From Patescibacteria group bacterium (GTDB lineage: Bacteria > Patescibacteriota > Microgenomatia > 2-02-FULL-39-11): DNA of 64,000 nt. Positions within the stretch are counted from its first letter, which is position 1, and every line of letters starts with the position of its first letter. Made by a program: the position numbers and the translations under genes. The notes beneath the pieces were generated by a model. It was not told where the DNA came from. It did no database searches and was given only the letters and a program-made list of their open reading frames with translations. Positions 1,675-31,278 of this stretch are shown one piece after another. The stretch lies in NCBI GenBank assembly GCA_023379265.1, contig JAMCUI010000009.1, positions 252,908 through 316,907 of the forward strand, written 5' to 3'.

Positions 1675-2444
1675 AAAACGCAGATATAAGCGCCATCATT
1701 ATAACCAAAAACGAAGAAAAAGACATAGAAGGTTGCATAAAAACATTGCCCTTTGCAAAAGAAATTATTGTTGTTGATAATGGTTCAACTGATAAGACAG
1801 TCGATAAGGCAAAATCTTTGGATGCAAAAGTGGTTGTAAGCGGTACTCTTGATTTTTCCTATCTGCGCAATCTGGGCCGCGAAAAGGCCGAACATGAATG
1901 GCTTTTTTATATTGATGCTGACGAAAGAGTGACGCCGCACCTCAAGGAAAGTCTTGTAAAAGCAGCAAAAAATATAAGGGGAAAATACTGTGCCTATGCT
2001 GTCAGGCGGAAAAATTATTACCTGGGAGTGGAATGGCCAAATGAGGAAAAGATGGTCAGACTGGTTAGGAAAAAGGATCTTCTGGGTTGGTACGGATCAC
2101 TGCACGAGACGCCCCAGGTGCTTGGTAAGGTAGACGATATAAAAGAGGGTATTTTACTCCATTTTGCTCATAACGACATTTCCGAGATGGTGGAAAAGAC
2201 AAATCAATGGTCCAACCTTGAGGCACAATTGCGCTACAAGAACAACCATCCTAATATGACTCCGTGGCGGTTTTTTAGGGTGATGTCGACTGCTTTTATG
2301 AAATCATATGTTACCGACGGAGGTTATAAAGCTGGCACTACCGGTCTTATAGAGAGTGTTTATCAGTCATTTAGCATGTTTATCACCTATGCTAAATTGT
2401 GGGAAAAGCAAAATGGCGATAAGTTGTATGATGAAGAAAAATAA
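1671..2444 (+). CDS. Family 2 glycosyltransferase
   Basis: 'ISAIIITKNEEKDIEGCIKTL...IIVVDNGSTDKT' and 'YIDADE' motifs. Paralog of ORFs 2-769 and 24229-25032. ATGA overlap with the upstream gene. Confidence 0.75.
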   Translation: MKNADISAIIITKNEEKDIEGCIKTLPFAKEIIVVDNGSTDKTVDKAKSLDAKVVVSGTLDFSYLRNLGREKAEHEWLFYIDADERVTPHLKESLVKAAKNIRGKYCAYAVRRKNYYLGVEWPNEEKMVRLVRKKDLLGWYGSLHETPQVLGKVDDIKEGILLHFAHNDISEMVEKTNQWSNLEAQLRYKNNHPNMTPWRFFRVMSTAFMKSYVTDGGYKAGTTGLIESVYQSFSMFITYAKLWEKQNGDKLYDEEK

Positions 2445-2457
2445 AGAGACCAAAAAG

Positions 2458-3528
2458 ATGAAAATAGGGATATACAGTCCTTATCTGGATACATTGGGGG
2501 GAGGGGAAAGGTATATATTGTCTATTGCCCGGTATTTGAAAAGCCAAAAAGACTATGCCGTCTATATCTATGGGGATGTGCGTCTGCGGGAGAAAATTGA
2601 ATCAATGTTAAGTATTGATCTTTCCGGTGTCTATTTTTTGCCTCAATCACAGATAATAAAAACTGGCCCTCTTTCCAAAATCATAAGACCTCGGATGTAT
2701 GACATTTTTTTTTACATGACGGACGGTAGCCTTTTTTTTCCGATTGCCAAGAGGAATTTTCTAATAATGCAATCACCTATTCATCTGACTAAAAAGTCAC
2801 TACTGAATAAAGTGAAATTGCATAATTGGGAAATTTTGTGCTATTCGGAATTTATGGCGGGTGTGATTTTTGACAGGTTGGGACTTGAAGCCACCGTTTT
2901 ATCCCCTCCGGTTGAGACTGAAAAGTTGCAATATAGTGGAGAAAAAAAACAAAATATAATTTTGTCTGTTGGCCGATTTTTTATAAATCCCCACAACAAG
3001 AAGCAGGAATTCCTTATAGACGTTTTCCGACGAAGCTATAAAAAATATTTTTCAGGATGGAAACTAATTCTTGCTGGAGGCTTCCTACCAAGTAAAAAAA
3101 CAAATATTGAAATGAACAGGTTGAAAGAGACAATCGGGAGCTTTCCTATAGAGTTCTATACAAACGTTAATTTCCACGAATTGGTAAGACTTTATAGAAA
3201 ATCAAAAATATATTGGCATGCGACTGGTTACGGTGAAGACTTACAGTTATATCCTGAAAGGGCGGAACACTTTGGTATTACTACTTTGGAGGCGATGTCA
3301 GCCCAGTGCGTACCGGTTGTTTTTAATGGCGGCGGTCAGGTGGATATAATAAATGACGGTATAGACGGTTATTTCTGGAAAAGCGAGAAGGAGTTGTTGT
3401 ATAAAACAACCATTTTAATGAAGGATGAAAGGCTCAGGAAAAAGATGTCTTTGGAATCAGTAAAAAGAGCAGCAGATTTCGGACCTAAAAAATTCTATGA
3501 AAAGATTGACCAAATTCTTTCAGAATAA
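2458..3528 (+). CDS. GT4-family (GT-B fold) glycosyltransferase
   Basis: 'MKIGIYSPYLDTLGGGERY' N-terminus and 'EHFGITTLEAMSAQCVPVVFNGGGQVDII' (glycos_transf_1 E-x7-E region). I prefer the ATG at 2458, just after the upstream stop (2444), over the extended track start at 2356. Confidence 0.75.
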   Translation: MKIGIYSPYLDTLGGGERYILSIARYLKSQKDYAVYIYGDVRLREKIESMLSIDLSGVYFLPQSQIIKTGPLSKIIRPRMYDIFFYMTDGSLFFPIAKRNFLIMQSPIHLTKKSLLNKVKLHNWEILCYSEFMAGVIFDRLGLEATVLSPPVETEKLQYSGEKKQNIILSVGRFFINPHNKKQEFLIDVFRRSYKKYFSGWKLILAGGFLPSKKTNIEMNRLKETIGSFPIEFYTNVNFHELVRLYRKSKIYWHATGYGEDLQLYPERAEHFGITTLEAMSAQCVPVVFNGGGQVDIINDGIDGYFWKSEKELLYKTTILMKDERLRKKMSLESVKRAADFGPKKFYEKIDQILSE

Positions 3529-5809
3529 TTTTTTCCCGCTTCTTATACTGTTATTGGTAATCATTTTTTTTTACCCGGTCTTTTTGCAGGGTAAACTTCC
3601 CATTCCTGCCGATACCATAACAGGTATGTATTATCCTTTTAAGGATGTGTCTTTTGCCGGCTATCCGTCAGGTGTGCCATACAAAAACTTTCTGACGACA
3701 GATCCTGTAAGACAACAATATGTCTGGCGGTATGCGGCAATGTCACAAATGGCAAAGGGTGAACTACCTCTTTGGAATCCTTACTCATTTTCCGGTACTC
3801 CTCTTTTGGCCAATTTCCAATCAGCACCTTTTTATCCCCTGAATGTCTTATTTATATTTCTGCCCTTTGATGTCGCCTGGACAATTCTTGTTATTGTTCA
3901 ACCTCTTCTTGCCGGTATATTTTTATATTTTTATTTGAAGGAAATCGGAACAGGAAAGATGGGTGCTTTCATAGGATCCATAGCGTTTGCCTTTTCAGGT
4001 TTCAGCATTGCCTGGTTGGAATGGAATACGGTTATACAAACCGCACTCTGGCTTCCATTATTATTGTTATCGATTGAGAGAATTATTCAGACTATCGGCA
4101 ATTTTCAAAATTCAAAACTGCAGGTAAGAAAAAGGAAGATAATTATTTGGGTGGGGATTTTTACTTTTTCCTTAATCTTCTCTTTTTTTGCCGGACATTT
4201 GCAAGTTCTCTTTTATGAGTTTCTAGTCACTAATTTTTATTTAACGATCAAAATTGTACTGGCGAGGAAAAATAAACTAAAGATTATTTTGCTCTTCGCA
4301 TTTAGTTATTTATTATTTGTTGTTTTGACGTCAATTCAATGGTTGCCTTTACTGCGCTTCATCATGCTTTCAGCCAGGAATGTCGATCAGGGAAACTATA
4401 CGCATGTTGCCGGCTGGTTTCTCCCTTGGCAAAACCTTGTTCAATTTATTGCTCCTGACTTTTTCGGTAATCCATCAACGAATAACTATTGGGGGATATG
4501 GAATTACGGTGAATTTATCGGTTTCATAGGTATTTTACCTCTTATTCTTGCTTTGTATGCGCTTGTATTTCGTTATAGCAAGAAGGCCCTTTTTTTCTCG
4601 ACCGTTTTTTTCCTAAGTCTTATTTTTTCCCTGCCAAATGTCTTTTCAATGCTGCCTTTCAGTTTGCATCTTCCTCTTCTTTCTTCAAGTCAGCCCACAA
4701 GATTGATGTTTCTTGTGGATTTTTCGCTCTCTATTCTGGCGGCATTTGGTTTTGATAATCTCTCATCAGATAAAAATATAAGGAAAATATTGTGGGTTTT
4801 AATTCCTGTTGCTGTCGTTTTTATTCTTCTTTGGATATTTGTTTTGAAGTTTCCCCTTTTTAATCTGAATATCTCTGCGGCGGACATTTCTGTTTCCAAA
4901 AGAAATCTTTTTTTGCCGAGTATAGTATATTTGTTTTCTGCGATATTATTGCTGGGGATAGCGTCAATGAAAATGAATAATAAAATCCCTCTATTTTTTT
5001 TGCTGATTATCATTTTTATTGCAGAGATTTTCAGGTTTGGCTGGAAATTTACCCCATTTTCCAAAAGCGAATTCCTTTATCCTCCAACAACTATCACTAA
5101 TTTTATAAAAAAAGACAAAAATAATTTTAGAATGATGACTACGGATAGACGAATAATGCCTTCGAATTTTTCTGTCTACTACGAATTGCAGGATGTAGCA
5201 GGATATGATCCTTTATATCTTCTGTCGTACAATCGGTTTGCGGCTTCGTGGGGAAGGGGAAAGACGGATATAGATGCCGCTTCCTTCAACAGGATTGTAA
5301 CTCCTTCAAATTACGACAGTTTCTTTTCAGATTTATTGGGGGTAAAGTATATAATGAGTTTCGGACCGCTAAAATCAGCAAAGTTAAAGCATATTATGAC
5401 TGAAGGAAATACTTATCTTTATGAAAATAAGAAAGTTTTCCCGAGAGCCTTTTTTGTAGGAAATATTGTCTTTGCATCAAATCCCCAGGAAGAGATGGAC
5501 AAGATGTATTCACTTGCCGATAATTTGCGAAATACCGCTGTGTTGAATAAGAATGTGAAAATCAAACCTCAGAAGAAAGGATTAGAAGATGATAAAGCAG
5601 AGATTGTTCATTATGAGGCAAATGATGTCCAGATTAAGGTTGTTACAACTGCAGAGAGATTGATGGTTTTGACTGATATTTATTATCCGTCGTGGAAGGC
5701 CTCAATCGATGGGAGACCTGCGGAAATTCTCAAGGCTGATTTCCTTTTGCGTGCGATTGTCGTACCAAAAGGCGAACACACAATAATGTTTTATACAAGC
5801 TTGATTTGA
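3497..5809 (+). CDS. YfhO-like polytopic membrane protein (GT-C-related, lipid-linked sugar transferase candidate)
   Basis: 770 aa with many hydrophobic segments. N-terminal 'FYPVFLQGKLPIPADTITGMYYPF' and 'LPLWNPYSFSGTPLLAN' resemble the YfhO family start. C-terminal soluble domain 'IYYPSWKASIDGRPAEI...KGEHTIMFY', shared with ORF 22580-24232. Confidence 0.55.
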   Translation: MKRLTKFFQNNFFPLLILLLVIIFFYPVFLQGKLPIPADTITGMYYPFKDVSFAGYPSGVPYKNFLTTDPVRQQYVWRYAAMSQMAKGELPLWNPYSFSGTPLLANFQSAPFYPLNVLFIFLPFDVAWTILVIVQPLLAGIFLYFYLKEIGTGKMGAFIGSIAFAFSGFSIAWLEWNTVIQTALWLPLLLLSIERIIQTIGNFQNSKLQVRKRKIIIWVGIFTFSLIFSFFAGHLQVLFYEFLVTNFYLTIKIVLARKNKLKIILLFAFSYLLFVVLTSIQWLPLLRFIMLSARNVDQGNYTHVAGWFLPWQNLVQFIAPDFFGNPSTNNYWGIWNYGEFIGFIGILPLILALYALVFRYSKKALFFSTVFFLSLIFSLPNVFSMLPFSLHLPLLSSSQPTRLMFLVDFSLSILAAFGFDNLSSDKNIRKILWVLIPVAVVFILLWIFVLKFPLFNLNISAADISVSKRNLFLPSIVYLFSAILLLGIASMKMNNKIPLFFLLIIIFIAEIFRFGWKFTPFSKSEFLYPPTTITNFIKKDKNNFRMMTTDRRIMPSNFSVYYELQDVAGYDPLYLLSYNRFAASWGRGKTDIDAASFNRIVTPSNYDSFFSDLLGVKYIMSFGPLKSAKLKHIMTEGNTYLYENKKVFPRAFFVGNIVFASNPQEEMDKMYSLADNLRNTAVLNKNVKIKPQKKGLEDDKAEIVHYEANDVQIKVVTTAERLMVLTDIYYPSWKASIDGRPAEILKADFLLRAIVVPKGEHTIMFYTSLI

Positions 5810-5824
5810 TATGAGAAGTTTAAT

Positions 5825-6748
5825 ATGAATAAAAAAATAAGCATTGTTATACCAAACTATAATGGCAGGAATTTGTTTATGAAAAACTTGCCTGAGGTTT
5901 TAAAAGCTGCGAGAGGTGCAGAGATTATAGTTGTGGATGATGCTTCAGAAGATGACAGCGTGGCAATGCTCCGAAAGAATTTTCCCCATATAAACGTTTT
6001 ACAAAGTGAAACCAATCGGGGATTTTCCACTGCGGTAAATAAGGGCGTGATGGCGGCAAAAGGAGAATTAGTGCTTCTTCTTAATAGCGATGTCTATCCA
6101 GAAACTGACTTTTTGGAATATCTTCTGCCCCATTTTGTCGATAATAAAGTTTTTGCAGTAGGATGCCTTCAGAAAAGCGAAGAAGAGAAAAACAGGACCG
6201 TACAGCGAGGCAGAGGTATTGGTGAATTTAAAAATGGATTTCTCATTCACTCAAAAGGAAAGCCCGATAAGAAAAATACTCTTTGGGTTTCAGGAGGAGC
6301 TGGGATTTTCAGAAAAGACTTGTGGAATGATCTGGGGGGGTTGCGGGAAATATATGACCCCTTTTATTGGGAGGATATAGACCTGTCTTACAGAGCGCTG
6401 AAAGCCGGATATAAAGTGGCATTTGAACCAAAAAGCACAGTTTGGCACAAACAAAGTACGGGGGCTATCCGAAACAAATATGACAGCAGTCGAATAAAGG
6501 CAATTTCATATAGGAATCAGATTCTTTTTGTCTGGATGAATATTACTGATTTTGGATTGCTGATTAATCATCTTTTATATTTGGTCTATATTACATCCAA
6601 ATCCATAATTAAGATTGATAAGTCTTTTATATCAGGGCTTTTACAGGCAATAGTAAGATTGCCCCAGGCGATGGTAGAGCGTTTCAAATTTAAGTCAATG
6701 ATTAAAATTAAAGACGAACAGATATTTCTCTTATTTAAGAAAGACTGA
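5825..6748 (+). CDS. Family 2 glycosyltransferase
   Basis: 'ISIVIPNYNGRNL', 'IIVVDDASEDDS', 'LLLNSDV' and 'FYWEDIDLSYRALKAGYKV' motifs. Confidence 0.75.
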   Translation: MNKKISIVIPNYNGRNLFMKNLPEVLKAARGAEIIVVDDASEDDSVAMLRKNFPHINVLQSETNRGFSTAVNKGVMAAKGELVLLLNSDVYPETDFLEYLLPHFVDNKVFAVGCLQKSEEEKNRTVQRGRGIGEFKNGFLIHSKGKPDKKNTLWVSGGAGIFRKDLWNDLGGLREIYDPFYWEDIDLSYRALKAGYKVAFEPKSTVWHKQSTGAIRNKYDSSRIKAISYRNQILFVWMNITDFGLLINHLLYLVYITSKSIIKIDKSFISGLLQAIVRLPQAMVERFKFKSMIKIKDEQIFLLFKKD

Positions 6749-6797: not shown

Positions 6798-6830
6798 ACT
6801 TGATATTTTGATTAGGTGTTTAGAGTAAAA

Positions 6831-8510
6831 ATGAGACGTCACATTTTTCTATTGGTATCGATTTTTATACTGGCATGTATTTTGCGGCTCTATCAGCTTG
6901 GCAAGACACCTATATCTCTAGAGTGGGATGAGGTAGCCATAGGCTATGACGCTTATTCAATACTGCATACGGGTCGGGATCAATTCGGCACGCTTTTGCC
7001 TTTGACATTCAGGTCTCTTGATGATTACAAGCCTCCAATTTATGAATATATTACAGTTCCTTCAGTGGCTATATTTGGACTAAACTCATTCGGAGTGAGA
7101 TTTCCCTCGGCATTTTTCGGGATACTGACAGTTATTGCCACCTATTTTCTGATCTTTACAATTATGTCGAAGGTGCCCAGGTTGGCAAAAGGAGCCTCAT
7201 ATATAGCTTTTCTTGCGGCATTTCTTCTTTCAGTGTCACCCTGGCATCTGCAGTTTTCCCGGGCGGCTTTTGAAGTAAATGTGTCCGTGTTTATTACAGT
7301 TGTGGCAGTGTATCTTTTTATTGCAGGTTTGGAAAAGTCGCGGCTTTTTGTACTGTCAGCTTTATTTTTCGGCCTTGATCTGTTTTCATATCACAGCACA
7401 AGAGTGGTTGCACCTCTTCTTCTGGTTTCACTTTTTCTTCTATTCAACCGATTGCTGCCGAAAAGAAAATATGTTGTCAGATTTAGTCTTATCTTTGCTG
7501 TATTTTTTGCCGGATTCATATCAATACTCCTTACGCCTGGGTCAGAGATTAGGTTTCAGGCAACAAACATATTCAACGCCGGCGCTAGGTATCTTAACGA
7601 GAAGGATCTTGAGAAAATATTTCTAGACCAGAGACTATTGGATGCGAAAGCGGGCTTTGCCCAGGCCGGAAAAATATTCCATAATCAGAGATTTATTTAT
7701 TCTGATTACGATACTTTGGTAAAAGCATTTAACCATTACCTGTCCAATTTCGGTTTTGAATTTCTGTTTATACGGGGTGATGCACCTTTGCACCATGCTC
7801 CTGGATTCGGACTCATATATGTTTGGGAGTTGCCATTTATACTATTGGGTATTTTGTATATTCTGAAAAACGGGTTAAACCGTTATTCTCTTATATTGCC
7901 CCTTTGGTTTCTTTTCGTGCCCATACCGGACGCCGTTACTCGTGAGGCTCCTCACGCGGTCAGGTCCGAGCTTTTTTTGCCTCTGTGGCAGACATTTGCC
8001 GCAATTGGATTATTTGTAGCCTTTGATTTTGTCAGGAAGGAGTCCCGCTGGGTGGTGGTATTTTCTGTGCTTTTTGCCTTGTCAACTTTTATGGTTGATA
8101 ACAGCTATTATCTGCACCAGTATTATGTGCATACCAATTACGAACTTTCAAAGAATTGGCTATACGGGAGAAAGCAGGCGGTGGAGTATACGGAGAACGT
8201 AAAAGGCAGTTATGATCACGTCTTGGTTTCTATGCATGTTGACATGCCATATATTTTCTGGCTTTTTTACTCCAAATACCCTCCGGCAAAATATCTGGCT
8301 GCGGGAGGTACGGTTTCCGGCGGTTTTGCTGATCAAAGAAATCATTTTGATAAGTATGAATTCAAAAATTTCAATTACAACAATCTGCCGACAAATGAAA
8401 CGTTGCTCTTGGTTGGTGTACCGGGAGATTTTCCGCCAGATGCAAGGATACTCAAAACCATAAGATATATTGACGGTACAAAGGCATTGGAAATAGTTGA
8501 GAATCGGTAG
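6831..8510 (+). CDS. GT-C fold glycosyltransferase, ArnT/PMT-like (GT39/GT83-type), array copy 1
   Basis: Polytopic membrane protein. First-loop 'SLEWDEVAIGYDAYSILHTGRDQFG', 'SVSPWHLQFSRAAFEVNV', 'APHAVRSELFLP', and C-terminal periplasmic domain 'GRKQAVEY...MPYIFWLFYSKYPPAKY'. The ATG at 6831 is preferred over the GTG at 6816. Confidence 0.7.
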   Translation: MRRHIFLLVSIFILACILRLYQLGKTPISLEWDEVAIGYDAYSILHTGRDQFGTLLPLTFRSLDDYKPPIYEYITVPSVAIFGLNSFGVRFPSAFFGILTVIATYFLIFTIMSKVPRLAKGASYIAFLAAFLLSVSPWHLQFSRAAFEVNVSVFITVVAVYLFIAGLEKSRLFVLSALFFGLDLFSYHSTRVVAPLLLVSLFLLFNRLLPKRKYVVRFSLIFAVFFAGFISILLTPGSEIRFQATNIFNAGARYLNEKDLEKIFLDQRLLDAKAGFAQAGKIFHNQRFIYSDYDTLVKAFNHYLSNFGFEFLFIRGDAPLHHAPGFGLIYVWELPFILLGILYILKNGLNRYSLILPLWFLFVPIPDAVTREAPHAVRSELFLPLWQTFAAIGLFVAFDFVRKESRWVVVFSVLFALSTFMVDNSYYLHQYYVHTNYELSKNWLYGRKQAVEYTENVKGSYDHVLVSMHVDMPYIFWLFYSKYPPAKYLAAGGTVSGGFADQRNHFDKYEFKNFNYNNLPTNETLLLVGVPGDFPPDARILKTIRYIDGTKALEIVENR

Positions 8511-8515
8511 ACAGT

Positions 8516-9385
8516 ATGAAAAAGATTTTTTTTCTGGTGCTGATTTTACTTAACACAGTTTTCTTGAGGATATATAAGATCGGGTTGGTTCCACCCCTAA
8601 AGTCACAAGCGGATTTGGATTTACGCTATTTATCTTCAATACTTGGGATACTTTCAGTTTTTTTAATATATTTTTATGTCAAAAAGATATTTCAAGAAAA
8701 CGTAAGGATGGGACTTTTGGGTGCCTGGGTATTCAGTTTGCTGCCTTGGACAATAGAACAAAACCGTATTATTTCCCAGCCGACGTATGCACTTTTCATA
8801 TTAATTATTGCTCTGTTAATTTCGTTGGTAAACAAAAATAAAATAATAAAATATGGAGTTTTTTTTGTTTTTGCCCTAATATTGTATTTTGTCTATCCCC
8901 AGTTCTGGCTTTTCAGACATTTTGCTCATCTTCCGGGGATAAAGGATGTTGCGGATAATGTTTTTATATTGGTTTCGCCTGATCTCCTTTTTTTCAAAAA
9001 TATTACTTTCTGGTGGGGCGGGGTAAGAGACTACGGAATTTTGCTTTTGGGTTTTTTGCCGTTTCTTCTTGTAGGATTTTACCGGGTTGTAGTTTCCCAA
9101 AAAAAGGAAATCCTTCTACCCTTTTTTTTGCTTCTAATGATTTCTGCTTTGAGCCCCTTTTTTCCTGAAAGCCGGGAATATTACCTTACATTACCTTTTA
9201 TTACGGTATTTATATCTGTAGGAATCTGGAATATTTTCCGTAATAAATATTTTTTAAGTAATGTTTTATCGGTTTTTCTTTTTCTTTTTTTAATATATGA
9301 TTTTGCCGGATTTCTTCATTTTTACCAAATACATTACCCGCAATTTATTATAGGTAACCTACACAATATACATGTACCATATTAA
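8516..9385 (+). CDS. Degenerate/truncated paralog of the GT-C array (possible gene remnant or non-catalytic subunit)
   Basis: 289 aa, hydrophobic. The N-terminus aligns with array paralogs ('FLRIYKIGLVPPLKSQADLDLRY' against 'VLRVWNTNYAPPGLNRDEAAIGY'), but the DE pair is replaced and the ~50-aa 'NAYSIL-TGKDEYG' loop is missing. 'SLLPWTIEQNRI' corresponds to the 'ISPWHI-FSR' motif. The conserved C-terminal domain is absent. Confidence 0.45.
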   Translation: MKKIFFLVLILLNTVFLRIYKIGLVPPLKSQADLDLRYLSSILGILSVFLIYFYVKKIFQENVRMGLLGAWVFSLLPWTIEQNRIISQPTYALFILIIALLISLVNKNKIIKYGVFFVFALILYFVYPQFWLFRHFAHLPGIKDVADNVFILVSPDLLFFKNITFWWGGVRDYGILLLGFLPFLLVGFYRVVVSQKKEILLPFFLLLMISALSPFFPESREYYLTLPFITVFISVGIWNIFRNKYFLSNVLSVFLFLFLIYDFAGFLHFYQIHYPQFIIGNLHNIHVPY

Positions 9386-11030
9386 ATTAAAAGCAGGAAT
9401 ATTACTTCTTGCAATCATAATTTTTTCCGCAGTTTTGCGTATTGTCTGGCTTGGTAACTTTCCTGCTTCTTTATATACGGATGAAGCTGACCAAGGATAT
9501 AATGCATATTCTATACTTTTGACGGGAAGAGACGAACATGGTGTATTTCTACCAGTATCGATGAGATCTTTTGGAGATTGGAAGCCGCCCCTACCGACCT
9601 ACCTTATGATTCCATTTATATATTTCTCAGACTTAAATAGTGTCGCCATCAGGATGCCTTCTGCTCTCTCGGGTGTAGGGACTATTGTTCTTACTTATTT
9701 ACTGGTTGTTGAACTTTTCTCCCGCCAAAAATATAAGACAAAAATTGCTCTTTTATCCGCATTTTTTTTATCAATCTCACCTTGGCATATTTTGCAAAGC
9801 CGATCGGCGATGCTTGTTGTCATAAGCCTTTTTTTTCTTGAAGCGGGAGTACTTTTTTTCCTTTGGTATAGGAAAAAGGCTTCAATGTTAATTTTTTCGG
9901 CTATCTTTTTTTCCTTATCAATTTACGCATATTACGGAATGCGTGTAATTACGCCTCTCGTAATCTTGCTTATGTATTTAAGAGAGAGGAAGAATATTGT
10001 TTTGCTATCTAAAGAGGTGATAGTCGGATTTCTGGCGGGAATAATCATTCTTATTCCTCTTTTTGCCGGCATTGTCAAAAATAAGGATGTTCTTTTGGGT
10101 CGCGCGCAGACCGTCAGTGTTTTTTACGACCAAGGTGTAAAACTTTTGCAGTGGGAATATATAGCCCAGGACGGGGTGAAGCAAGTTTCACCTACCATTA
10201 CAAGGTTATTTCATAACAACGTTACTATGTATGTACAGAATATAATCAGACGGTATCTTTCACATTTTGACGGTGATTACCTTTTCTTCACTGGTGACAA
10301 AGCAGAGCCTTTTGAAATACCCAATATGGGAATTTTATATATTCCCGACGGAATATTTATTCTGGCAGGAATAATATTATTGATAAAACGAGGATATAAA
10401 GGTATAGACTTACTGTTGGGATTTTTACTTATATCGTTCATACCTGCTGCATTTACATTTATGACTCCGTCAACTAATCGGACATTCAATGCCGTTGTGC
10501 CTTTGGTTATATTTTCGTCTGGGTGCGCTGTATATTTATCAAGCCTGATGAATAAAAGTATAATACCGGGTCTCGCAATAAGTTTGGTTTATACGGTTTT
10601 ATTTGCATATTTTATGCAGCAGTATTTTCTTGTCCTGCCCAAAAAACATTCCGATTGGTGGAATTGGGGTTGGAAGCAAGTGGTGAATTATGTCAGCGGA
10701 GTGGATAGTAGATACAATAATGTGATCGTTGCTGATGTGAATGGCATGCCGTATATATATTTTCTTTTCTATACTAAATATAATCCCGCGCTTTATCAAA
10801 AGCAAGCAGTAAGGCCATATGTGCCGGATCGATTTGGTTTCGAACATGTCGAAGGGTTCGGGAAATTCTGGTTCCCTAAAAATTTTGAATGGAAGTATGT
10901 AAAAAATGATCTGCAAAAGGATACTTTATACGTTGTGCCGGCAGATCAGGCTCCCGGGAATGACGGCTATATCAAAGAAATAGACAATCCTGCCGGTAAA
11001 CCGTTATTTAAAATTTTCAGCAGTTTATAA
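9372..11030 (+). CDS. GT-C fold glycosyltransferase, ArnT/PMT-like, array copy 2
   Basis: 'YTDEADQGYNAYSILLTGRDEHG', 'SISPWHILQSRSAM', and C-terminal 'GWKQVVNYV...MPYIYFLFYTKYNPALYQK'. Confidence 0.7.
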   Translation: MYHIKLKAGILLLAIIIFSAVLRIVWLGNFPASLYTDEADQGYNAYSILLTGRDEHGVFLPVSMRSFGDWKPPLPTYLMIPFIYFSDLNSVAIRMPSALSGVGTIVLTYLLVVELFSRQKYKTKIALLSAFFLSISPWHILQSRSAMLVVISLFFLEAGVLFFLWYRKKASMLIFSAIFFSLSIYAYYGMRVITPLVILLMYLRERKNIVLLSKEVIVGFLAGIIILIPLFAGIVKNKDVLLGRAQTVSVFYDQGVKLLQWEYIAQDGVKQVSPTITRLFHNNVTMYVQNIIRRYLSHFDGDYLFFTGDKAEPFEIPNMGILYIPDGIFILAGIILLIKRGYKGIDLLLGFLLISFIPAAFTFMTPSTNRTFNAVVPLVIFSSGCAVYLSSLMNKSIIPGLAISLVYTVLFAYFMQQYFLVLPKKHSDWWNWGWKQVVNYVSGVDSRYNNVIVADVNGMPYIYFLFYTKYNPALYQKQAVRPYVPDRFGFEHVEGFGKFWFPKNFEWKYVKNDLQKDTLYVVPADQAPGNDGYIKEIDNPAGKPLFKIFSSL

Positions 11031-12790
11031 TGAAAAGGAAATATCTTCTTATATTTCTTATCCTTATTTTGGGGTTTGTGCTCAGGGTGTGGAATACAAA
11101 TTATGCTCCTCCTGGTTTAAATCGTGATGAAGCCGCGATAGGTTACAATGCTTATTCAATACTGAGAACGGGAAAGGATGAATACGGGAAGTTTCTTCCT
11201 TTATCGTTCAAGTCTTTTGGTGACTGGAAGTTGCCATTCTATATTTATTTGGATGTTATTCCAGTAAAACTTTTTTCGCTGACGCCTTTTTCAGTCCGCC
11301 TTCCTTCTATATTTTTAGGCACTGCTACAATCCTGACTGTATATTTTTTGGTTAAGGAACTCTTAAGAAATAAAAGAAAATCAGATATTATTGCACTTTT
11401 GTCAGCATTTTTTATATCAATTTCTCCCTGGCATATACATTTTTCCCGGGTTGCCGCAGAAGCAAACGTAGCCGTATTTTTTGTCGTTTTGGGGTTGTAT
11501 TTCTTTATAAAAGGAATTAAAACACCAATTTACCTTTTATACTCGTCAACGAGTTTTGGTCTAAGCATGTATACTTATCACGGCAATCATGTATTTACTC
11601 CTCTTCTACTTTTGGCTCTTTTTGTTTATATCCTAAAATCCCATAGAGGGTTAAAAACTGTTTTCATGTTTATTTTGCCCGTATTTTTGTTGGGTTCAGT
11701 TGTATTTGCTAATACACTTTTGGGAGCGGACAGGACAAAAATTTCCGGCTTGACGCCCCTGTCGGATGTATCACTGGTATACCAGAAAGTAGCGTTACCG
11801 AGATTTGACCATACAAATCCGTATTCCAAACTGACTCTTGCCTACCATAATAAAATAACTTTTCTGATTGGAAGGTTTCTACAAGGGTATTATATGGGTT
11901 TTTCACCAGAATTTCTGTTCATAAAGGGAGGAAATAACCTGCAGCACAATATACCGGATTTCGGTAACCTTTATATGTGGGATGCGCCATTTTTTCTTTT
12001 GGGATTATTTTATATTTTAAGGGATAGATTGAGATGGCGCTATATATTGCTATTTTGGTTGCTGATTTCTCCGGTTGCAGCAGCCATTACTAAGGATGCA
12101 CCGCATTCAGCCAGGATGATTGCCTTTTTACCGTTACCGTATATTTTATCGGCAGTAGGATTTCTAGTATTGTCTAAGAGTATCAGGAAACGGGTATTAC
12201 AAGATATATTTTTGTTTGGGTCAGGAGTACTTCTCATCATCAATTTTACTTTTTACCTTGATCGGTATTTTATTCATTTCCCAAAATTATTGGAAGCACA
12301 GTGGGGAGGAGGGTACAAACAATTGGTTGAGGATGTAGATAGTTTATCTCCCAGATATAAGAATATAGTTATTGATAATCCTGACAATTCACCTTATATT
12401 TATTTTCTTTTTTATAAAAGAACTGACCCGAAACTATATCAGAAAAATGTCGTAAGATACCCTACAGATATAGAAGGATTCCAAAATGTCAAAAGTTTCG
12501 GAGGTATCACTTATAAGAAAATAGATTGGGCTGATGATTTGGTTATCCCCAACAGATTATTAATTTCCTGGGTTGATTCAACCCCGGCAGGTGCAACAGG
12601 AAGTGCTGTTCTTGTGACAAATAAACTTCTTTCACATGTTGAAGAAAAGTTCGGCGGCAGAAATTTTAATCTGGCAGTGGGGGATAAGGTGACAAGTAAA
12701 ATTCTCAAAACGATCAGACTTAAAAATGGAATTTCCCAGTTTTATATATTAGATATTGAGCGAACACCGGCTGCATTAATAAATAAATAA
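11030..12790 (+). CDS. GT-C fold glycosyltransferase, ArnT/PMT-like, array copy 3
   Basis: 'NRDEAAIGYNAYSILRTGKDEYG', 'SISPWHIHFSRVAAEANV', 'DAPHSARMIAFLP' and 'SPYIYFLFYKRTDPKLYQKN'. TAATG overlap with copy 2. Confidence 0.7.
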   Translation: MKRKYLLIFLILILGFVLRVWNTNYAPPGLNRDEAAIGYNAYSILRTGKDEYGKFLPLSFKSFGDWKLPFYIYLDVIPVKLFSLTPFSVRLPSIFLGTATILTVYFLVKELLRNKRKSDIIALLSAFFISISPWHIHFSRVAAEANVAVFFVVLGLYFFIKGIKTPIYLLYSSTSFGLSMYTYHGNHVFTPLLLLALFVYILKSHRGLKTVFMFILPVFLLGSVVFANTLLGADRTKISGLTPLSDVSLVYQKVALPRFDHTNPYSKLTLAYHNKITFLIGRFLQGYYMGFSPEFLFIKGGNNLQHNIPDFGNLYMWDAPFFLLGLFYILRDRLRWRYILLFWLLISPVAAAITKDAPHSARMIAFLPLPYILSAVGFLVLSKSIRKRVLQDIFLFGSGVLLIINFTFYLDRYFIHFPKLLEAQWGGGYKQLVEDVDSLSPRYKNIVIDNPDNSPYIYFLFYKRTDPKLYQKNVVRYPTDIEGFQNVKSFGGITYKKIDWADDLVIPNRLLISWVDSTPAGATGSAVLVTNKLLSHVEEKFGGRNFNLAVGDKVTSKILKTIRLKNGISQFYILDIERTPAALINK

Positions 12791-12794
12791 TATA

Positions 12795-14423
12795 ATGAAT
12801 AAGAAAAAAGTTTTATTTGTTCTGATACTTATCTTATCTGTCTTTCTTAGGTTCTATAAGATCTCGACAGTTCCCACGGGATTATACAGTGATGAAGCGG
12901 CGTATGGTTATAATGCCTATTCCATCCTGCTGACGGGTAAGGATGAATATGGTACCCATTTTCCTTTGGCATTCAAGTCCTTTGGTGACTACAAGACTCC
13001 TCTTTATATATATTTTATGGTTCCGTTTGTAAGAGTATTTGGACTGACTATAGAAGCAGTCAGATATTCCTCAGTATTTTTGGGTTTGGCTCTTATCGTT
13101 ATTGTTTATCTTCTCTCAGGCCGTATGTTCCAGAGATCCTCGGTTTCTCTTCTGAGTGCTTTTTTTGTTTCGGTATTTCCCTTCGGTCTACAATTCAACC
13201 GTATGGCGCATGAGAATAATTTGTCAGTCGTGCTTCTTTCTCTTGGGGTTTTGCTATTTTTATATTCTTTCGAGTACAAAAAGCTGATAATACTATCTTT
13301 TATTGCATTTGCCATGTCTATGTATGCGTATCATGACACCCGTGTTATTGTTCCGTGCCTTCTTGCAAGCCTTCTTATTATATTCAGAAGTCAGTTATAT
13401 GATATGAAAAAACAGATTGGAGTAGCAGTAGTTTCCGGCATAATCTTGTTGCTTCCGTTTGTGGATATTGTGAGATCTCCCGATTTCTGGTCAAGGCCTA
13501 GTTTCACCGCAGTTACAACAGACGCGGGTATAAGGAATGAAATTAATCAGGAAAGAGGCGAAGATAAACTATACGGCTTTTTACTTCCAGCCTTCTTTCA
13601 CAATAAACCTTTGTCATACGCATTTACTTTCTTAGATAATTATTTCAAACATTTTTCAGCAGATTTTTTCTTTTTCAGAGGGGATACTGTAACAATATAC
13701 AGAACTTTAGGAAACGGCGTGCTTTATATAGCAGTCCTGCCATTTCTTGTTTTCGGAGCATATTTTCTTGTAAGAAAGAAAAGTGTCTATAATCAGGTAA
13801 TTATTGCCTGGATGATAATTTCTCCGATTCCGGCAGCACTAACCAGATTTGTCCCATCAGCAAGCAGAACATTATCTCTATTACCTATTCTAAGTATCAT
13901 TGTTGCAATAGGAATTGTTTCACTAATTGATAACAAAAAATATTCAAATATTAATCGAGTAATTTATTTACTCATAACAGTGGTTATATCATTTAATGTG
14001 GCGTATTATTTACATATGTACTATTTCAACTCTCCTGTCAGATATGCAAAGGATTGGCATTTCGGGATGCAAACGGTTATAAATGAGGTTGTTAACCTTC
14101 AGTCTAAATATAAACAGGTTTGGTTTAGTCGTAATGCATGGGGATATATTTATCCGCTTTTCTATATGAAATACCCGCCAAGCGAATATCAAAAAGAAGC
14201 AAAATTAAGCAATCTGAACGAATACGGATTTGGCTGGGTTGACGGATTTGGCAAATACAAATTCGGGGATTTCCCTCCAAAATTTGAAAACATGAGAGAT
14301 ACGCTATTTGTTGGAACGCCAAATGACTTTCCTAAGTTAAATAATGCAATATATACAGAATATTATCCTGATAAAAGTAAAGCTTTTATATTGGCTGATT
14401 ACGATTCTCTTCACACAAAATGA
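12795..14423 (+). CDS. GT-C fold glycosyltransferase, ArnT/PMT-like, array copy 4
   Basis: 'YSDEAAYGYNAYSILLTGKDEYG', 'YHDTRVIVP' and 'GYIYPLFYMKYPPSEYQKE'. The 'SPWH' motif has diverged to 'FPFGLQFNR'. Confidence 0.65.
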   Translation: MNKKKVLFVLILILSVFLRFYKISTVPTGLYSDEAAYGYNAYSILLTGKDEYGTHFPLAFKSFGDYKTPLYIYFMVPFVRVFGLTIEAVRYSSVFLGLALIVIVYLLSGRMFQRSSVSLLSAFFVSVFPFGLQFNRMAHENNLSVVLLSLGVLLFLYSFEYKKLIILSFIAFAMSMYAYHDTRVIVPCLLASLLIIFRSQLYDMKKQIGVAVVSGIILLLPFVDIVRSPDFWSRPSFTAVTTDAGIRNEINQERGEDKLYGFLLPAFFHNKPLSYAFTFLDNYFKHFSADFFFFRGDTVTIYRTLGNGVLYIAVLPFLVFGAYFLVRKKSVYNQVIIAWMIISPIPAALTRFVPSASRTLSLLPILSIIVAIGIVSLIDNKKYSNINRVIYLLITVVISFNVAYYLHMYYFNSPVRYAKDWHFGMQTVINEVVNLQSKYKQVWFSRNAWGYIYPLFYMKYPPSEYQKEAKLSNLNEYGFGWVDGFGKYKFGDFPPKFENMRDTLFVGTPNDFPKLNNAIYTEYYPDKSKAFILADYDSLHTK

Positions 14424-16084
14424 AGATAAATTTTTTGATTGTTTTGATACTGATATTAAGCATTTTTCTGCGTTTTTGGCATCTTAATGAGTTCCCTGCA
14501 ACACTTTATGGAGATGAACAAGCTTTTGCCTGGAATGCTTACAATATCCTTTTGACCGGCAAGGATGAGTATGGGAAGCCCTTTCCTCTAGAATTCAGGT
14601 CGTTTGACGACTACAAAGCTCCAATCCCAGTATATATACTTGTGCCATTTTTCAAGGTGATGGGGATGAATATGTTTTCCATAAGGCTTCCAGTAGCAAT
14701 TTCTTCCGTAATAACGGTTTATGCAGTATATCTTCTTTCAGGATTATTTTTCAGGAAGAAAGCTTCGCTAATAATTACTTTTCTTATGGCAATTTCTCCA
14801 TGGCATATACATCTGTCCAGGGGTTATTTTGAGGCAACGATGAGTCTGTTGTTTTTTATACTGGGTATTTATTTCTATTTTGCCAGTAAGAATAGGTTGA
14901 AGATTATGTTTTTTGGGATATTTTTTTTCGCCCTATCGCTTTACACGTATTTCACCCCAAGAATTCTTGTACCCATTTTTCTTCTGTTTCTTTTTATTTA
15001 CAGCTATAAATATCGAGACCGGTTAGTAACAGCTAAAGAAATGTTGAAGAAGTTTACAGTCAGTTTCATATTTTTTATCATACTTATTTCTCCCCTTATT
15101 AAAGTAACATTTTTCGGAGAAGGATTATCACGTTTCAACAAACTTACTGGTTCGCTAGAATTAGAAGCAGTCCAAACTGTTGTTAAAGAAAGAAACACTT
15201 CAAATTTATCAGCCAGATGGAAACCTTTGTTTCATAATAGATATTTAGCAACGGTAAGATTGGTTGCCGATAATTATCTAGAGCTTTTGTCTCCAAACTT
15301 CTGGTACATTTATGGAGACAGTTCCTTGCGGTATTTTACCGGCAATATGGGTATGTTCTACCTTCTGGAGTTTCCGTTTTTTATTGTCGGAGCATATCTG
15401 CTGTTTGTTAAAAAAAGAAAAGTCGCCTTATTTTTCTTTGTGTGGATCCTCTTGGCGCCTATTCCAGCAGCTTTAGTAGGAAAACCATATGCAGTGCGGA
15501 CTCTGGCAATCCTTCCGGCGCCATTTATTTTTGTCGGATATGGAATATATAAAAGCTTTGATATGGTAAAGTATATGTTTGGCAGACGTATTCTTACAGT
15601 ATCATTGGTTTTACTTTTTACCCTCTCTCTTTTTACACTTCTAATAAGGTATTACATGGAATATCCGGTTTATGCTGCAACTTGGTGGGGGTGGGAAAAT
15701 AAAGCGGCTATAGATTATGCAATGGCACGGTCGACAAAATATAAGGATATATTCATTTCAAATTTTTACAGCGGCGCTACATTGGCTTTTGCCGTCTATA
15801 ATCATTATGATCCAATACAATACAGATATGCCATAAATCATCCTGTCACTATGGCTGACGGAAGACATCTTGTAAAACTGGGAAAGTATTATTTTGGTTC
15901 CTTGGATCTTAATAAAAATAGGTTAGAAGAGAAGATAATTCCTACCGACAGCCTTTATATAGGACGTCCCGAAGAACCAAGGGGAGAAGACCAAATAGTT
16001 GCTCCTGACGACGGAAGGCTAATTTTTGTCGTGCATGATACATTGCGTAAAAAATGTTATATTTATGCGAAAATTCCCTGCTGA
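14420..16084 (+). CDS. GT-C fold glycosyltransferase, ArnT/PMT-like, array copy 5
   Basis: 'YGDEQAFAWNAYNILLTGKDEYG', 'AISPWHIHLSRGYFEA' and 'KPYAVRTLAILP'. ATGA overlap with copy 4. Confidence 0.7.
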   Translation: MKINFLIVLILILSIFLRFWHLNEFPATLYGDEQAFAWNAYNILLTGKDEYGKPFPLEFRSFDDYKAPIPVYILVPFFKVMGMNMFSIRLPVAISSVITVYAVYLLSGLFFRKKASLIITFLMAISPWHIHLSRGYFEATMSLLFFILGIYFYFASKNRLKIMFFGIFFFALSLYTYFTPRILVPIFLLFLFIYSYKYRDRLVTAKEMLKKFTVSFIFFIILISPLIKVTFFGEGLSRFNKLTGSLELEAVQTVVKERNTSNLSARWKPLFHNRYLATVRLVADNYLELLSPNFWYIYGDSSLRYFTGNMGMFYLLEFPFFIVGAYLLFVKKRKVALFFFVWILLAPIPAALVGKPYAVRTLAILPAPFIFVGYGIYKSFDMVKYMFGRRILTVSLVLLFTLSLFTLLIRYYMEYPVYAATWWGWENKAAIDYAMARSTKYKDIFISNFYSGATLAFAVYNHYDPIQYRYAINHPVTMADGRHLVKLGKYYFGSLDLNKNRLEEKIIPTDSLYIGRPEEPRGEDQIVAPDDGRLIFVVHDTLRKKCYIYAKIPC

Positions 16085-16086
16085 AC

Positions 16087-17706
16087 ATGATTAAAAAAAA
16101 TATTGCAATTATATTTATAATTCTGTTATTGTCCGCAATGCTCAGGTTGTACAGGATAAACATAAATCCGCCATCACTTTCATGGGATGAAGCTTCACTC
16201 GGGTATAATGCATTTCTTATTGGGTCATCTCTTCATGATGAGCATGGGGAATACATTCCTTTGGCACGTTTTATTGCCTTTGGAGATTATAAACCTCCAG
16301 GATATATATATGCGGACGTTCTGCCCGTCCGTCTTTTAGGGCTGAATGAGTTTTCCGTCAGATTTCCGTCTGCTGTTTCCGGAATATTGATGGTTTTAGT
16401 GACATATCTTTTAGTAAAGGAATTATTCGGAAGCAAGAGAATCGCTCTACTAGCGTCTTTATTTATTGGTATCTCGCCATGGTCACTGCAACTTTCGCGG
16501 GCGGCATACGAGGCAAATATGGCGGCCTTTTTGAATTTGTCGGGAGTTTATTTTTTCCTCCTGTCACGGAAGAGGAAATGGTTTTTAGCTCTATCGGTAG
16601 TGTTATTCATTGCTTCATTTTATACTTTCAATGCCAACAGGATAATCGCACCGTTTCTTCTATTATTCCTATCAGTCTATTTTTGGAGGGATATGCTTTC
16701 AAATAAGAAGTGGGTCATTATTTCAGTGCTTATGGGTATGGTGTTAGTTTCTCCTAGCATACAGTATCTCTTAAGCCGTGAAAGCAAGCTTCGTTTGCAA
16801 GAAGTATCCATTTTCAATAATCTTGCTCCCTTAAAACAATCAAATGAAATGATAGCATATGATAAAGGAGCTTGGTGGGCAAAAATAATTCATAACAGAA
16901 GAGTGCTTTATGGAATGGATTTCCTGAAGCACTATTTTGACAATTTTACCGGTAGGTTTCTCTTTGTCGAAGGCGATGCAAATCCCAGGTTGTCAGTGCA
17001 AAACATGGGGGAACTTTATGTTTTTGATCTATTTTTTCTCATTGCTGGGGGATTCTGGTTATTTAAAAAGAAAAAAGATGTCTTCTGGCCTCTTATTTTT
17101 TGGATGATTATAGTACCAATTCCTTCAGCCTTGGCAAAGGAAACTCCACATGCTTTGAGGATTGTATCAATACTGCCAGTATACCAGATTATTATCGCCT
17201 ATGGGGTCTATATGACTTTTAATAAATTAAAAGTAAGATTACCTTTCAATATATTTCAAACCGCATTGGTTATGATTGTATTAGTTCTTACTGCCTGCGT
17301 CTATTATTATTTGCACAATTATTATATTCATTATCCAATTGACTGGAGTGGTGAATGGCAATACGGGTATAAACAGATGGTTTCCTATGTGACGCCGCTT
17401 GAAAGCAAGTATGACCATATTTTTGTGACAGAGTCTTATGGTAGGCCCTATATATATTTTGCTTTTTACAACAGGTATACGGAGGGTAAACTTCTTAAAA
17501 TAAAGAAAGGTTCCAGGGACTGGTTTGGTTTTTGGCACGTATCGGATCTGGGTAAGATACATTTCGGTTTTGACAATCTGCAAAAATCCAAAGGGAAAAT
17601 ACTGATTGTGACAACATCCGGTAATATGCCCGGAGGTTATAAAGAGATAAAGGAAATACCAAATCTTAAGGGCGACACTGTATTTATCATCGGAAAGAAA
17701 TTATGA
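16087..17706 (+). CDS. GT-C fold glycosyltransferase, ArnT/PMT-like, array copy 6
   Basis: 'SWDEASLGYNAFLIG', 'GISPWSLQLSRAAYEANM', 'ETPHALRIVSILP' and 'GYKQMVSYV...RPYIYFAFYNRY'. I chose the ATG at 16087 (MIKKNIAIIF), right after the upstream stop. Confidence 0.7.
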   Translation: MIKKNIAIIFIILLLSAMLRLYRININPPSLSWDEASLGYNAFLIGSSLHDEHGEYIPLARFIAFGDYKPPGYIYADVLPVRLLGLNEFSVRFPSAVSGILMVLVTYLLVKELFGSKRIALLASLFIGISPWSLQLSRAAYEANMAAFLNLSGVYFFLLSRKRKWFLALSVVLFIASFYTFNANRIIAPFLLLFLSVYFWRDMLSNKKWVIISVLMGMVLVSPSIQYLLSRESKLRLQEVSIFNNLAPLKQSNEMIAYDKGAWWAKIIHNRRVLYGMDFLKHYFDNFTGRFLFVEGDANPRLSVQNMGELYVFDLFFLIAGGFWLFKKKKDVFWPLIFWMIIVPIPSALAKETPHALRIVSILPVYQIIIAYGVYMTFNKLKVRLPFNIFQTALVMIVLVLTACVYYYLHNYYIHYPIDWSGEWQYGYKQMVSYVTPLESKYDHIFVTESYGRPYIYFAFYNRYTEGKLLKIKKGSRDWFGFWHVSDLGKIHFGFDNLQKSKGKILIVTTSGNMPGGYKEIKEIPNLKGDTVFIIGKKL

Positions 17707-28119: not shown

Positions 28120-28485
28120 ATGCATTTAGTATTTACACAAGTTGTCTTAAGTATTTTTATTGTATTTGCTCTATCGCGTGTTTTTTTGCGGTTCAAAAGC
28201 GGAGAAGTGACATTTTTGGGATTCCTATTTTGGATTTTGCTTTTCGGATCTGCTTTGGCAATTATCATTTATCCGCCCATTTCTGGGGGTATCGCCAGAA
28301 TATTGGGTATAGGCCGTGGAGTAGATCTTGTTATTTATACTTCAATCGTACTTCTTTTTTATCTTGTTTTTAGACTTTATGTCTATCTTCAAGATATGCG
28401 TCATGAACTGACGAAATTGGTACAGAAGCTGGCTATGAAGGAGTTGGATGAAAAAAATGAAAAAAAACCCTCTTCCCAAAATTAG
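28120..28485 (+). CDS. Small 4-TM membrane protein, DUF2304-like (commonly paired with Dpm1-like GT2)
   Basis: 121 aa. 'GIGRGVDLVIYTSIVLLFYLVFRLYVYLQD' followed by a charged C-terminal tail. Directly downstream of the GT2. Confidence 0.4.
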   Translation: MHLVFTQVVLSIFIVFALSRVFLRFKSGEVTFLGFLFWILLFGSALAIIIYPPISGGIARILGIGRGVDLVIYTSIVLLFYLVFRLYVYLQDMRHELTKLVQKLAMKELDEKNEKKPSSQN

Positions 28486-31222: not shown

Positions 31223-31231
31223 CTTTCCCCT

Positions 31232-31259
31232 TTTACACGACCACCGGTTTTTATATACT
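31232..31259 (+). promoter_or_regulatory. Candidate sigma70-like promoter
   Basis: TTTACA (31232-31237), a 16-nt spacer, then TATACT (31254-31259), in the gap between the stop at 31222 and the ATG at 31279. Confidence 0.35.
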
Positions 31260-31278
31260 TACGTTATTCCATTTGCAT

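Follow-up and report, generated by a model that had tools for sequence, protein, structure and literature searches.

A conserved half-size relative of GT-C glycosyltransferases encoded beside a full-length paralogue in a Patescibacteria glycan island

What is a half-length gene doing inside a tandem array of full-length glycosyltransferase genes? The question is raised by a stretch of 64,000 nucleotides (nt) from a Patescibacteria group bacterium of the Microgenomatia (assembly GCA_023379265.1, contig JAMCUI010000009.1, positions 252,908 to 316,907 of the forward strand), hereafter called the window, in which seven genes coding glycosyltransferases of fold class C (GT-C) follow one another between positions 6816 and 19316. 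Among the many cell-surface glycans made by GT-C enzymes are N- and O-glycans, the cell wall of mycobacteria and the modifications of lipid A. All seven copies match the Pfam families PMT_2 and/or PMT. Between copy 1 (6816-8510) and copy 2 (9372-11030) lies an open reading frame (ORF) of 289 amino acids (aa), named here S, which runs on the + strand from ATG 8516, 5 nt past the stop codon of copy 1, to TAA 9385. A first-pass annotation, made without database searches, described it as an ORF open and hydrophobic throughout whose amino terminus aligns with the paralogues, and hesitated between a decaying duplicate and a retained non-catalytic membrane subunit. The description holds. As judged from its sequence relatives, S is functional and maintained by selection: a mini-GT-C reduced to a core of nine helices, and an ancient paralogue of the glycosyltransferases around it, which depend on polyprenyl-phosphate-sugars.

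S is a real gene and belongs to a conserved, unannotated family of half-size GT-C relatives. A word-indexed search of 90% clusters yields 44 homologues with 31-100% identity, all 259-321 aa long and covering the query end to end. An exhaustive profile search through 1.84 billion cluster representatives of a 50%-identity library gives 95 representatives at E<=1e-30, mostly of ~260-313 aa plus a few fragments; below them comes a score gap, followed by enzymes of 490-590 aa that match in 2-4 separate collinear stretches. The family thus counts at least 119 homologues, mostly of ~285-300 aa, with 22-100% identity to the window protein. It is taxonomically narrow, being carried by only five GTDB species representatives, two of them labelled Microgenomates or Gottesmanbacteria. 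Three records of metagenome-assembled genomes with a Microgenomates-type locus (L009, L010 and L013; L numbers designate the loci compared) bear the title 'uncultured Gammaproteobacteria bacterium'; these Third Party Annotation assemblies are probably mislabelled. The profile search also retrieved two differently reduced proteins: P0127 (421 aa) has a shortened loop 1 with 'HE', a central deletion and the C-terminal domain still present, while P0132 (320 aa) is devoid of loop 1 and of the C-terminal domain and keeps the enzyme-type 'SPWHIQFSR'. They may be evolutionary intermediates or independent reductions.

Family databases do not recognise S. Its PMT_2 (PF13231) score is 20.0 bits (E 8.7e-4), under the gathering cut-off of 26.1, and Pfam gives no match of S to PMT (PF02366). 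Among the 44 family members, PMT_2 is matched by 3 and PMT by 10 at E<=0.01. Nothing meaningful is matched by S in NCBIfam, where TIGR03663 gives no match at E<=1. The homologues carry the database name 'hypothetical protein', the window protein being an NCBI 'Patescibacteria group bacterium' hypothetical protein; with such names and scores below the Pfam and NCBIfam thresholds, the family is currently missed by genome annotations. The family profile finds in PDB sequences only chance matches to the estrogen receptor (E ~0.5), and S is tied to solved structures by fold comparison only. In the literature that could be searched, no account was found of truncated or non-catalytic bacterial GT-C proteins or of GT-C arrays in Patescibacteria, the Candidate Phyla Radiation (CPR).

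S is homologous over its full length to the seven flanking PMT_2/PMT-type paralogues of ~540-586 aa. BLASTP against copies 3 and 4 returns three collinear blocks, with E down to 1e-9, in which aa 2-26, 35-100 and 147-278 of S match aa 3-27, 88-156 and 281-421 of the full-length proteins. With profiles built from 44 short homologues and from 45 full-length relatives, hhalign gives a collinear match of short positions 4-284 to full-length positions 3-423 (probability 99.96%, E 5.5e-39). The S profile scores about equally against each of the orthogroups c1-c7 (21-26% identity, with c4 slightly ahead). No donor copy can thus be named, and S is an old branch of its own rather than a recent derivative of one neighbour. 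It was also considered, and rejected, that S and copy 2 might be one gene split by a frameshift, with S as its N-terminal part: copy 2 is complete with its own first transmembrane (TM) helix and D-E loop.

Structure prediction shows what was kept and what was lost. The AlphaFold2 model of S (predicted local distance difference test, pLDDT, 93.3; predicted template modelling score, pTM, 0.91) is a polytopic GT-C transmembrane fold with 9 TM helices, while that of copy 4 (pLDDT 94.4, pTM 0.93) has 11. In copy 4 the first external loop (aa 21-85) consists of two helices and a hairpin, loop 4 (aa 229-311) is long and helical, and an alpha/beta domain (aa 425-540) lies at the C-terminus. In S the order is TM1, an 11-residue loop, TM2-TM4 and one helix, a 51-residue loop 4 remnant, the equivalents of TM8-TM11 and a 9-residue tail. 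Three parts are missing. The first is the whole extracytoplasmic loop 1, which bears the D-E catalytic motif in the paralogues: what remains (aa 20-30) has no helix and no conserved acid across the 119 family members, and the (near-)invariant D33, E34, A41, G48, D50, G53, P57 and Y73 of the full-length loop have no counterpart. The second is an internal segment of ~100-120 residues, comprising two TM helices and proximal loop 4, so that five TM helices precede loop 4 in S and seven in copy 4. Which two of TM5-7 were lost is ambiguous, for MAFFT and hhalign place the S helix 109-126 differently. The third is the C-terminal extracytoplasmic domain: S ends 9 residues after TM11, where the paralogues run on into ~125 aa of alpha/beta structure. 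Since an even number of helices was removed the topology is kept, and the Lys/Arg distribution along the helix map fits an orientation with the amino terminus inside.

The first-pass annotation had noticed the absence of a ~50-residue loop and of the whole C-terminal conserved domain, and both losses are found in the alignments and helix maps; the deletion of two TM helices and proximal loop 4 had escaped it. Its statement that the D-E pair is replaced does not stand. The pair is deleted together with the entire loop, the local alignment proposed after 'PP' being off by ~53 residues: 'QADLDLRY', whose D residues are not conserved in the family, aligns with '...AVRY/SVRLPS' ~53 residues further on, where R37 of S corresponds to R90. 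The features of S are the following, with counts given over the 119 family members.

8516-9385, + strand: S, short GT-C paralogue of 289 aa, a 9-TM mini-GT-C
8519-8572, + strand: TM1 (aa 2-19), aligned with TM1 of the paralogues, R18 kept (100/119)
8573-8605, + strand: remnant of extracytoplasmic loop 1 (aa 20-30), standing in for the ~65-residue paralogue loop with D33/E34, D50 and Y73; no conserved acid
8606-8689, + strand: TM2 (aa 31-58), with near-invariant R37 (117/119), the R90 of full-length proteins
8741-8767, + strand: LPWTIEQNR (aa 76-84), in loop 2 and the outer end of TM3; P77, W78 and R84 also occur in the 'SPWHIxFSR' of the enzymes, and only the short family has E81 and Q82
8777-8893, + strand: TM4 (aa 88-105) and TM5' (aa 109-126), placed from AlphaFold2 helix maps and alignments; the paralogues add two TM helices and proximal loop 4 here
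8894-9046, + strand: distal part of extracytoplasmic loop 4 (aa 127-177), the largest block of conservation in the family, containing YPQFW and DNVFILVSPDLLFFKNITFWWGGVRDYG (S154 117/119, N162 115/119, G174 118/119, R/K171 112/119)
9047-9148, + strand: equivalents of TM8 (aa 178-193) and TM9 (aa 197-211)
9152-9184, + strand: loop 5 SPFFPESREYY (aa 213-223), aligned with 'PHAxR' of the enzymes; P217 is common, the Arg is kept one position away, and E218 and E221 occur in the short family only
9176-9355, + strand: TM10 (aa 221-242) and TM11 (aa 246-280), the latter with YDFAGFLHFYQIHYP (aa 261-275); Y261, H268, Y270 and H273 are near-invariant

What S keeps lies mostly on the outer face of the membrane. 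Besides the positions of loop 4, the near-invariant residues are R37, P77 (116/119), R84 (118), S87 (115), E218 (108), Y261 (115), H268 (118), Y270 (117) and H273 (118), and loop 5 has R/K220 in 106 members. The family motifs read LPWxxEQGRIxSQ, YPQFW, NNLFILxSPDFLFFKNITFWWGGVREFG, SPFFPESREFY and YExxQFxHYYxVHYPQQI. In the first of them W is found in 105/119 sequences and E in 95/119. The first-pass annotation rightly aligned LPWTIEQNR with the 'SPWHI-FSR' motif of the paralogues; it is not a degraded version of it, LPWxxEQGR being a conserved motif of the short family in its own right. Of the (near-)invariant positions of the full-length proteins, S keeps R19, P27, R90, P129, W130, R136, G308, G321, P354, G373 and Y409. 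The (near-)invariant R358 of loop 5 is kept with a shift of one residue, and where the enzymes have the Glu of 'SRxxxExN', S has Gln or Pro. Mean conservation amounts to 2.15 bits in the extracytoplasmic loops, 1.86 in the TM helices and 1.08 in the cytoplasmic loops; it peaks in external loops 2, 4 and 5 and is lowest in the very short cytoplasmic loops. Such dense polar conservation outside the cytoplasm favours a specific ligand site over a plain scaffold.

Solved relatives suggest what this ligand might be. GT-C(A) enzymes have a conserved N-terminal module of seven TM helices; of the two helices in loop 1 the first bears the catalytic base, and the donor groove is spanned by loop 4 (PMC13503287). 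ALG3 holds the donor phosphate by residues of loops 4 and 5, with its base in the first helix of loop 1 (PMC13503287); in MtPMT the base is D74 of loop 1, with help from D176 of loop 2, and the phosphate is bound by R441/Y444 of loop 5 (PMC12331936). S keeps, and in part sharpens, outer-face positions (R37, P77-W78-R84, distal loop 4, the loop 5 Arg, H268, Y270 and H273) that would correspond to lipid-phosphate contacts of these proteins. The equivalence of R/K171 in loop 4 and R/K220 in loop 5 to donor-phosphate residues is by alignment only, and the loop 5 Arg is off by one.

Selection on S can be followed in relatives, as the first-pass annotation had advised. The ratio of nonsynonymous to synonymous substitution rates (dN/dS) was obtained for the only two pairs with unsaturated dS, the remaining pairs being too divergent. 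Between the window and L001, its closest relative (80% aa identity), dN/dS of S is 0.156 (dN 0.135, dS 0.86); in the same pair it is 0.08-0.105 for the seven enzymes and 0.11-0.26 for the upstream genes. Between L026 and L028 it is 0.247, with 0.114 and 0.176 for the neighbours. S is under purifying selection, somewhat weaker than that acting on the enzymes. A separate feature of the window-L001 comparison is that dS is 0.19-0.37 in the upstream GT2, GT1 and YfhO genes (766-6748) and 0.5-1.34 in the GT-C array (6816-19316). This contrast looks like mosaic divergence, possibly due to recombination or to a different mutation or selection regime on the array.

The gene is also stable in its context. 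Arrays were checked in eight loci found through homologues of the short protein and in five more from species-representative genomes: each has exactly one short gene, flanked by full-length genes. S is intact in every context locus and remains intact and syntenic down to ~26% identity. A decaying duplicate that is still open by chance, the other alternative of the first-pass annotation, is hard to reconcile with a constant length over at least 119 homologues, dN/dS of 0.16-0.25, synteny, a confident compact fold and family-specific invariant motifs. The below-threshold Pfam score could be cited in favour of decay, and rare lineages do show it: at L049 (5505-6005) only a 166-aa remnant is left, with eroded motifs (WWGGVRE to IFQNIGKE, FPESRE to PGQLIKLE), and S is absent from L044. 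For the window decay is refuted, and practically no weight is left to it.

The gene that accompanies S is copy 2. Copies 1-7 form clean orthogroups across genomes by best-hit classification, and the copy 2 orthologue lies directly downstream of S in 14 of 15 context loci. In the exception, L007, a distant 376-aa PMT_2-type gene (10873-12003) separates S from copy 2. Its match to the full-length profile is confined to TM2-TM6 (hhalign probability 89%), and it was rejected as a second S and considered a distant PMT_2-type insert. The gene upstream of S varies, being mostly copy 1 and otherwise an extra copy-7-like gene (L005, L013) or a copy-5-like gene (L016). Within the window the neighbours of S are arranged as follows.

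6816-8510, + strand: GT-C copy 1, 564 aa; usual but not invariant upstream neighbour of S
9372-11030, + strand: GT-C copy 2, 552 aa, matching PMT and PMT_2; near-invariant downstream neighbour and proposed partner
9372-9385, + strand: overlap of 14 nt between the S stop and the copy 2 start (ATGTACCATATTAA)
11030-19316, + strand: GT-C copies 3-7, 537-586 aa, with intact D-E loop and C-terminal domain

The overlap, thought by the first-pass annotation to be a 13-nt style common to the array, is of 14 nt and occurs at no other of its junctions, where overlaps of 1, 4, 4 and 31 nt or small gaps are found. The orthologous junctions of L001, L008, L010 and L011 overlap by the same 14 nt.

The association was further surveyed on metagenome contigs with an alignment of copy 2 orthologues only as query, to avoid circularity. 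A matched gene at least 40% identical to copy 2 was taken as its orthologue, and S was scored as intact from 270 aa upwards.

Copy-2-seeded loci, at least 40% identity (n=38): S intact 29, cut by the contig end 3, shortened 2, absent 1 (L044), no upstream DNA 3
Loci of more distant paralogues, below 40% (n=41): S intact 2, cut by the contig end 0, shortened 0, absent 31, no upstream DNA 8

S is thus present in 34 of the 35 copy 2 orthologue loci that have upstream DNA (29 intact, 3 cut by the contig end and 2 shortened), and S and copy 2 are therefore a conserved gene pair. The distance matrix of S correlates better with that of copy 2 (r 0.78, partial r 0.60) than with that of its upstream gene (r 0.69, partial r 0.41), which is only suggestive. 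One variant of S, at L032 (2295-3053), is 252 aa long and has lost in frame two more TM helices (positions 87-122 of the hidden Markov model) with all motifs intact, which would make it a mini-GT-C of 7 TM helices. Copy 2 itself is split into two ORFs at L011 (1222-2865), where S is intact, and at L045 (632-2352), where S is cut by the contig end. This could result from a frameshift, a pseudogene or an assembly error.

A purely structural role, in which S would be a scaffold or assembly factor of the GT-C array devoid of a ligand site of its own, would account for the single copy per array and the operon coupling, and also for a protein that evolves faster than the enzymes. It is very unlikely, because the best-conserved residues are polar or charged ones of outer-face loops, homologous to the substrate region of the enzymes, and not helix-helix packing surfaces.

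S is strictly coupled to copy 2 in the genome, with one short gene per array overlapping the copy 2 start. The best reading, to which about an even chance is given, is that S would be a non-catalytic partner of copy 2 that binds the lipid carrier and, as such, a bacterial counterpart in function of PIG-U. Sugar transfer would have been lost. S may still bind the phosphate head-group of a polyprenyl-phosphate-linked sugar or glycan and form a 1:1 membrane complex with the copy 2 enzyme, to which it might hold or present the lipid-linked donor or acceptor, or which it might stabilise. The model is PIG-U, thought to present glycosylphosphatidylinositol (GPI) to the GPI transamidase. Retention of S and the full loss of the loop with the catalytic base agree with the non-catalytic membrane subunit envisaged by the first-pass annotation; the absence of catalysis and a role as scaffold or regulator are interpretations.

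Several points weigh against this partnership. S evolves ~1.75x faster than its neighbours across 30 loci. The mirror-tree signal is modest, and both shared phylogeny and non-orthologous upstream genes confound it. The degenerate S of L049 and its absence from L044 indicate that it is dispensable in some backgrounds. The complex with copy 2 is proposed from adjacency, overlap, co-occurrence and correlated distances, and lipid-phosphate binding from the equivalence of aligned positions. Finally, acids and histidines are conserved on the outer face of S (E81 in 95/119, E218 in 108/119, E221 in 93/119, H268 and H273 each in 118/119) and could form a relocated active site, so that loss of catalysis is no more than probable.

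This last point opens the possibility that S has remained an enzyme, either a glycosyltransferase or one of another type that depends on lipid phosphate (a hydrolase or ligase, for example), with catalysis rebuilt from E81/Q82, E218/E221 and H268/H273 and an acceptor, small or embedded in the membrane, that calls for neither loop 1 nor the C-terminal domain. Acidic residues of loops 2 and 5 are reported in catalysis by some GT-C enzymes (PglB D154/D156 and E319). The very strong conservation of polar residues over 119 sequences with identity down to 22%, with a peak in loops 2, 4 and 5 exceeding the needs of a passive scaffold, would suit an enzyme, as would the use of D176 of loop 2 by MtPMT (PMC12331936). 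An enzymatic S is nevertheless unlikely. Loop 1, the seat of the base in ALG3, ALG9, ALG12 and MtPMT (PMC13503287, PMC12331936), is wholly absent, the E of 'SRxxxExN' is Q or P, and dN/dS of S is above that of the enzymes. To our knowledge the catalytic base of GT-C enzymes has so far always been placed in the first external loop. H268, Y270 and H273 are conserved in the full-length enzymes too and are thus not new inventions of S.

The surroundings of the array bring in a further alternative. On the same strand the gene order is GT2, GT2, GT2, GT1, YfhO, GT2, the seven tandem GT-Cs (537-586 aa), an epimerase and a flavin adenine dinucleotide (FAD) enzyme. They belong to a glycan island of more than 45 kb (positions 1-46000 of the window), a large share of a small CPR genome, with at least 10 GT2 and 2 GT1/GT4 genes, several epimerases/dehydratases, a DegT aminotransferase and methyltransferases, YfhO-type GT-Cs at 3497-5809 and 22580-24232, a PIG-V-like GT-C at 26203-27399 and NeuB at 37816-38862. 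Between two GT2 genes, a 121-aa hydrophobic ORF (28120-28485, + strand) matches DUF2304 (E 4e-20); a lipid-sugar synthase could have in it a small membrane partner or its flippase, for which it is a candidate. Also inside the island, a 580-aa ORF that begins with TTG (31192-32934, + strand) has no Pfam match at E<=1e-4. In the array itself, copy 6 is listed with a start (16054-16086) that gives it a 31-nt overlap with copy 5 and the extra residues 'MLYLCENSLLN'. Next comes 'MIKKN...', a beginning like that of the paralogues, and translation probably starts at this internal ATG (16087). Copy 1 has a weak match to the NCBIfam model TIGR03663 (Agl23), with E 1.9e-7 and below the cut-off.

To glycosylate outside the cytoplasm, a cell normally requires a synthase and a flippase besides the GT-C (PMC11127046). 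No GtrA-type flippase is present among the ORFs scanned against Pfam, which are most of those up to ~46 kb, the rest of the window not having been scanned. S might then be a GT-C-derived translocator or recycler of the lipid carrier that kept the polyprenyl-phosphate groove and not the transfer machinery, moving polyprenyl-phosphate-sugars outward or spent polyprenyl phosphate inward in the service of all seven enzymes. The many GT2 genes of the cluster, candidate lipid-sugar synthases, and its ten GT-C-type genes would create the demand, and archaeal Agl23, the protein behind the model weakly matched by copy 1, is a reported hexose-P-dolichol flippase that moves lipid-linked glycan in proteoliposomes (PMC11182771). 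Such a function is quite unlikely for S. It has no match to the Agl23 model, its cytoplasmic loops are minimal and unconserved, a general supplier of seven enzymes is not expected to track one orthogroup, and the DUF2304 protein or the Wzx-type genes upstream in L007 and L008 could fill the role.

A wider view can be put forward as a tentative and rather doubtful one: with S, a class of bacterial pseudoenzymes derived from GT-C proteins would have its first member. S would have abandoned glycosyl transfer and become a minimal lipid-carrier module of 9 TM helices that handles polyprenyl-phosphate-linked substrates for a multi-enzyme extracytoplasmic glycan assembly line, and it could present donor or acceptor to copy 2 or translocate and recycle the carrier lipid. 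If so, the GT-C core functions without loop 1 and S defines the minimal lipid-phosphate-binding unit of the fold. As the family keeps the GT-C core with loop 1, two helices and the external domain removed, it is a natural minimal version of this fold, and could be used to separate lipid-carrier binding from catalysis. S would also be the first bacterial counterpart of the eukaryotic pseudo-GT-C PIG-U. Together with copy 2 it makes a conserved gene pair within the very large surface-glycan islands of uncultivated Microgenomates/Gottesmanbacteria, and offers a testable case of an enzyme/pseudo-enzyme pair confined to one uncultivated lineage.

The closest known systems are the GT-C(A) enzymes of the PMT_2/PMT type (ArnT and the protein O-mannosyltransferases, with ALG12 and STT3/AglB as fold relatives), to which type S is homologous. 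S differs from them by the absence of loop 1 with its two helices and catalytic Asp/Glu, by 5 and not 7 TM helices before loop 4, and by the absence of the C-terminal extracytoplasmic domain, which leaves it at half size and below the Pfam threshold. As the seven-helix module and the loop 1 base are missing and the Pfam thresholds are failed, S is not filed as a glycosyltransferase.

The best analogue of the proposed role is PIG-U (Gab1), a GT-C relative without the DxD/DE motif of the first lumenal loop that is proposed to bind and present GPI (PMC6056205). Like S, it has the GT-C fold devoid of the loop 1 acidic motif. It differs in being eukaryotic, of a PIG-M/ALG9-like branch and ~420 aa long, with the first loop still present; its partner is the GPI transamidase and not a GT-C, and no specific sequence relationship to S exists beyond the fold. 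Agl23 of Haloarcula hispanica (TIGR03663), weakly matched by copy 1, shows that a member of the wider group can handle lipid-linked glycan rather than transfer it (PMC11182771). Its model has 435 positions and the stretch matched by copy 1 spans the loop 1 region, while S has no match. The Pmt1-Pmt2 and EmbA-EmbB pairs are composed of two partners that are both full-length and catalytically competent, whereas in the S-copy 2 pair one partner is stripped of its catalytic parts.

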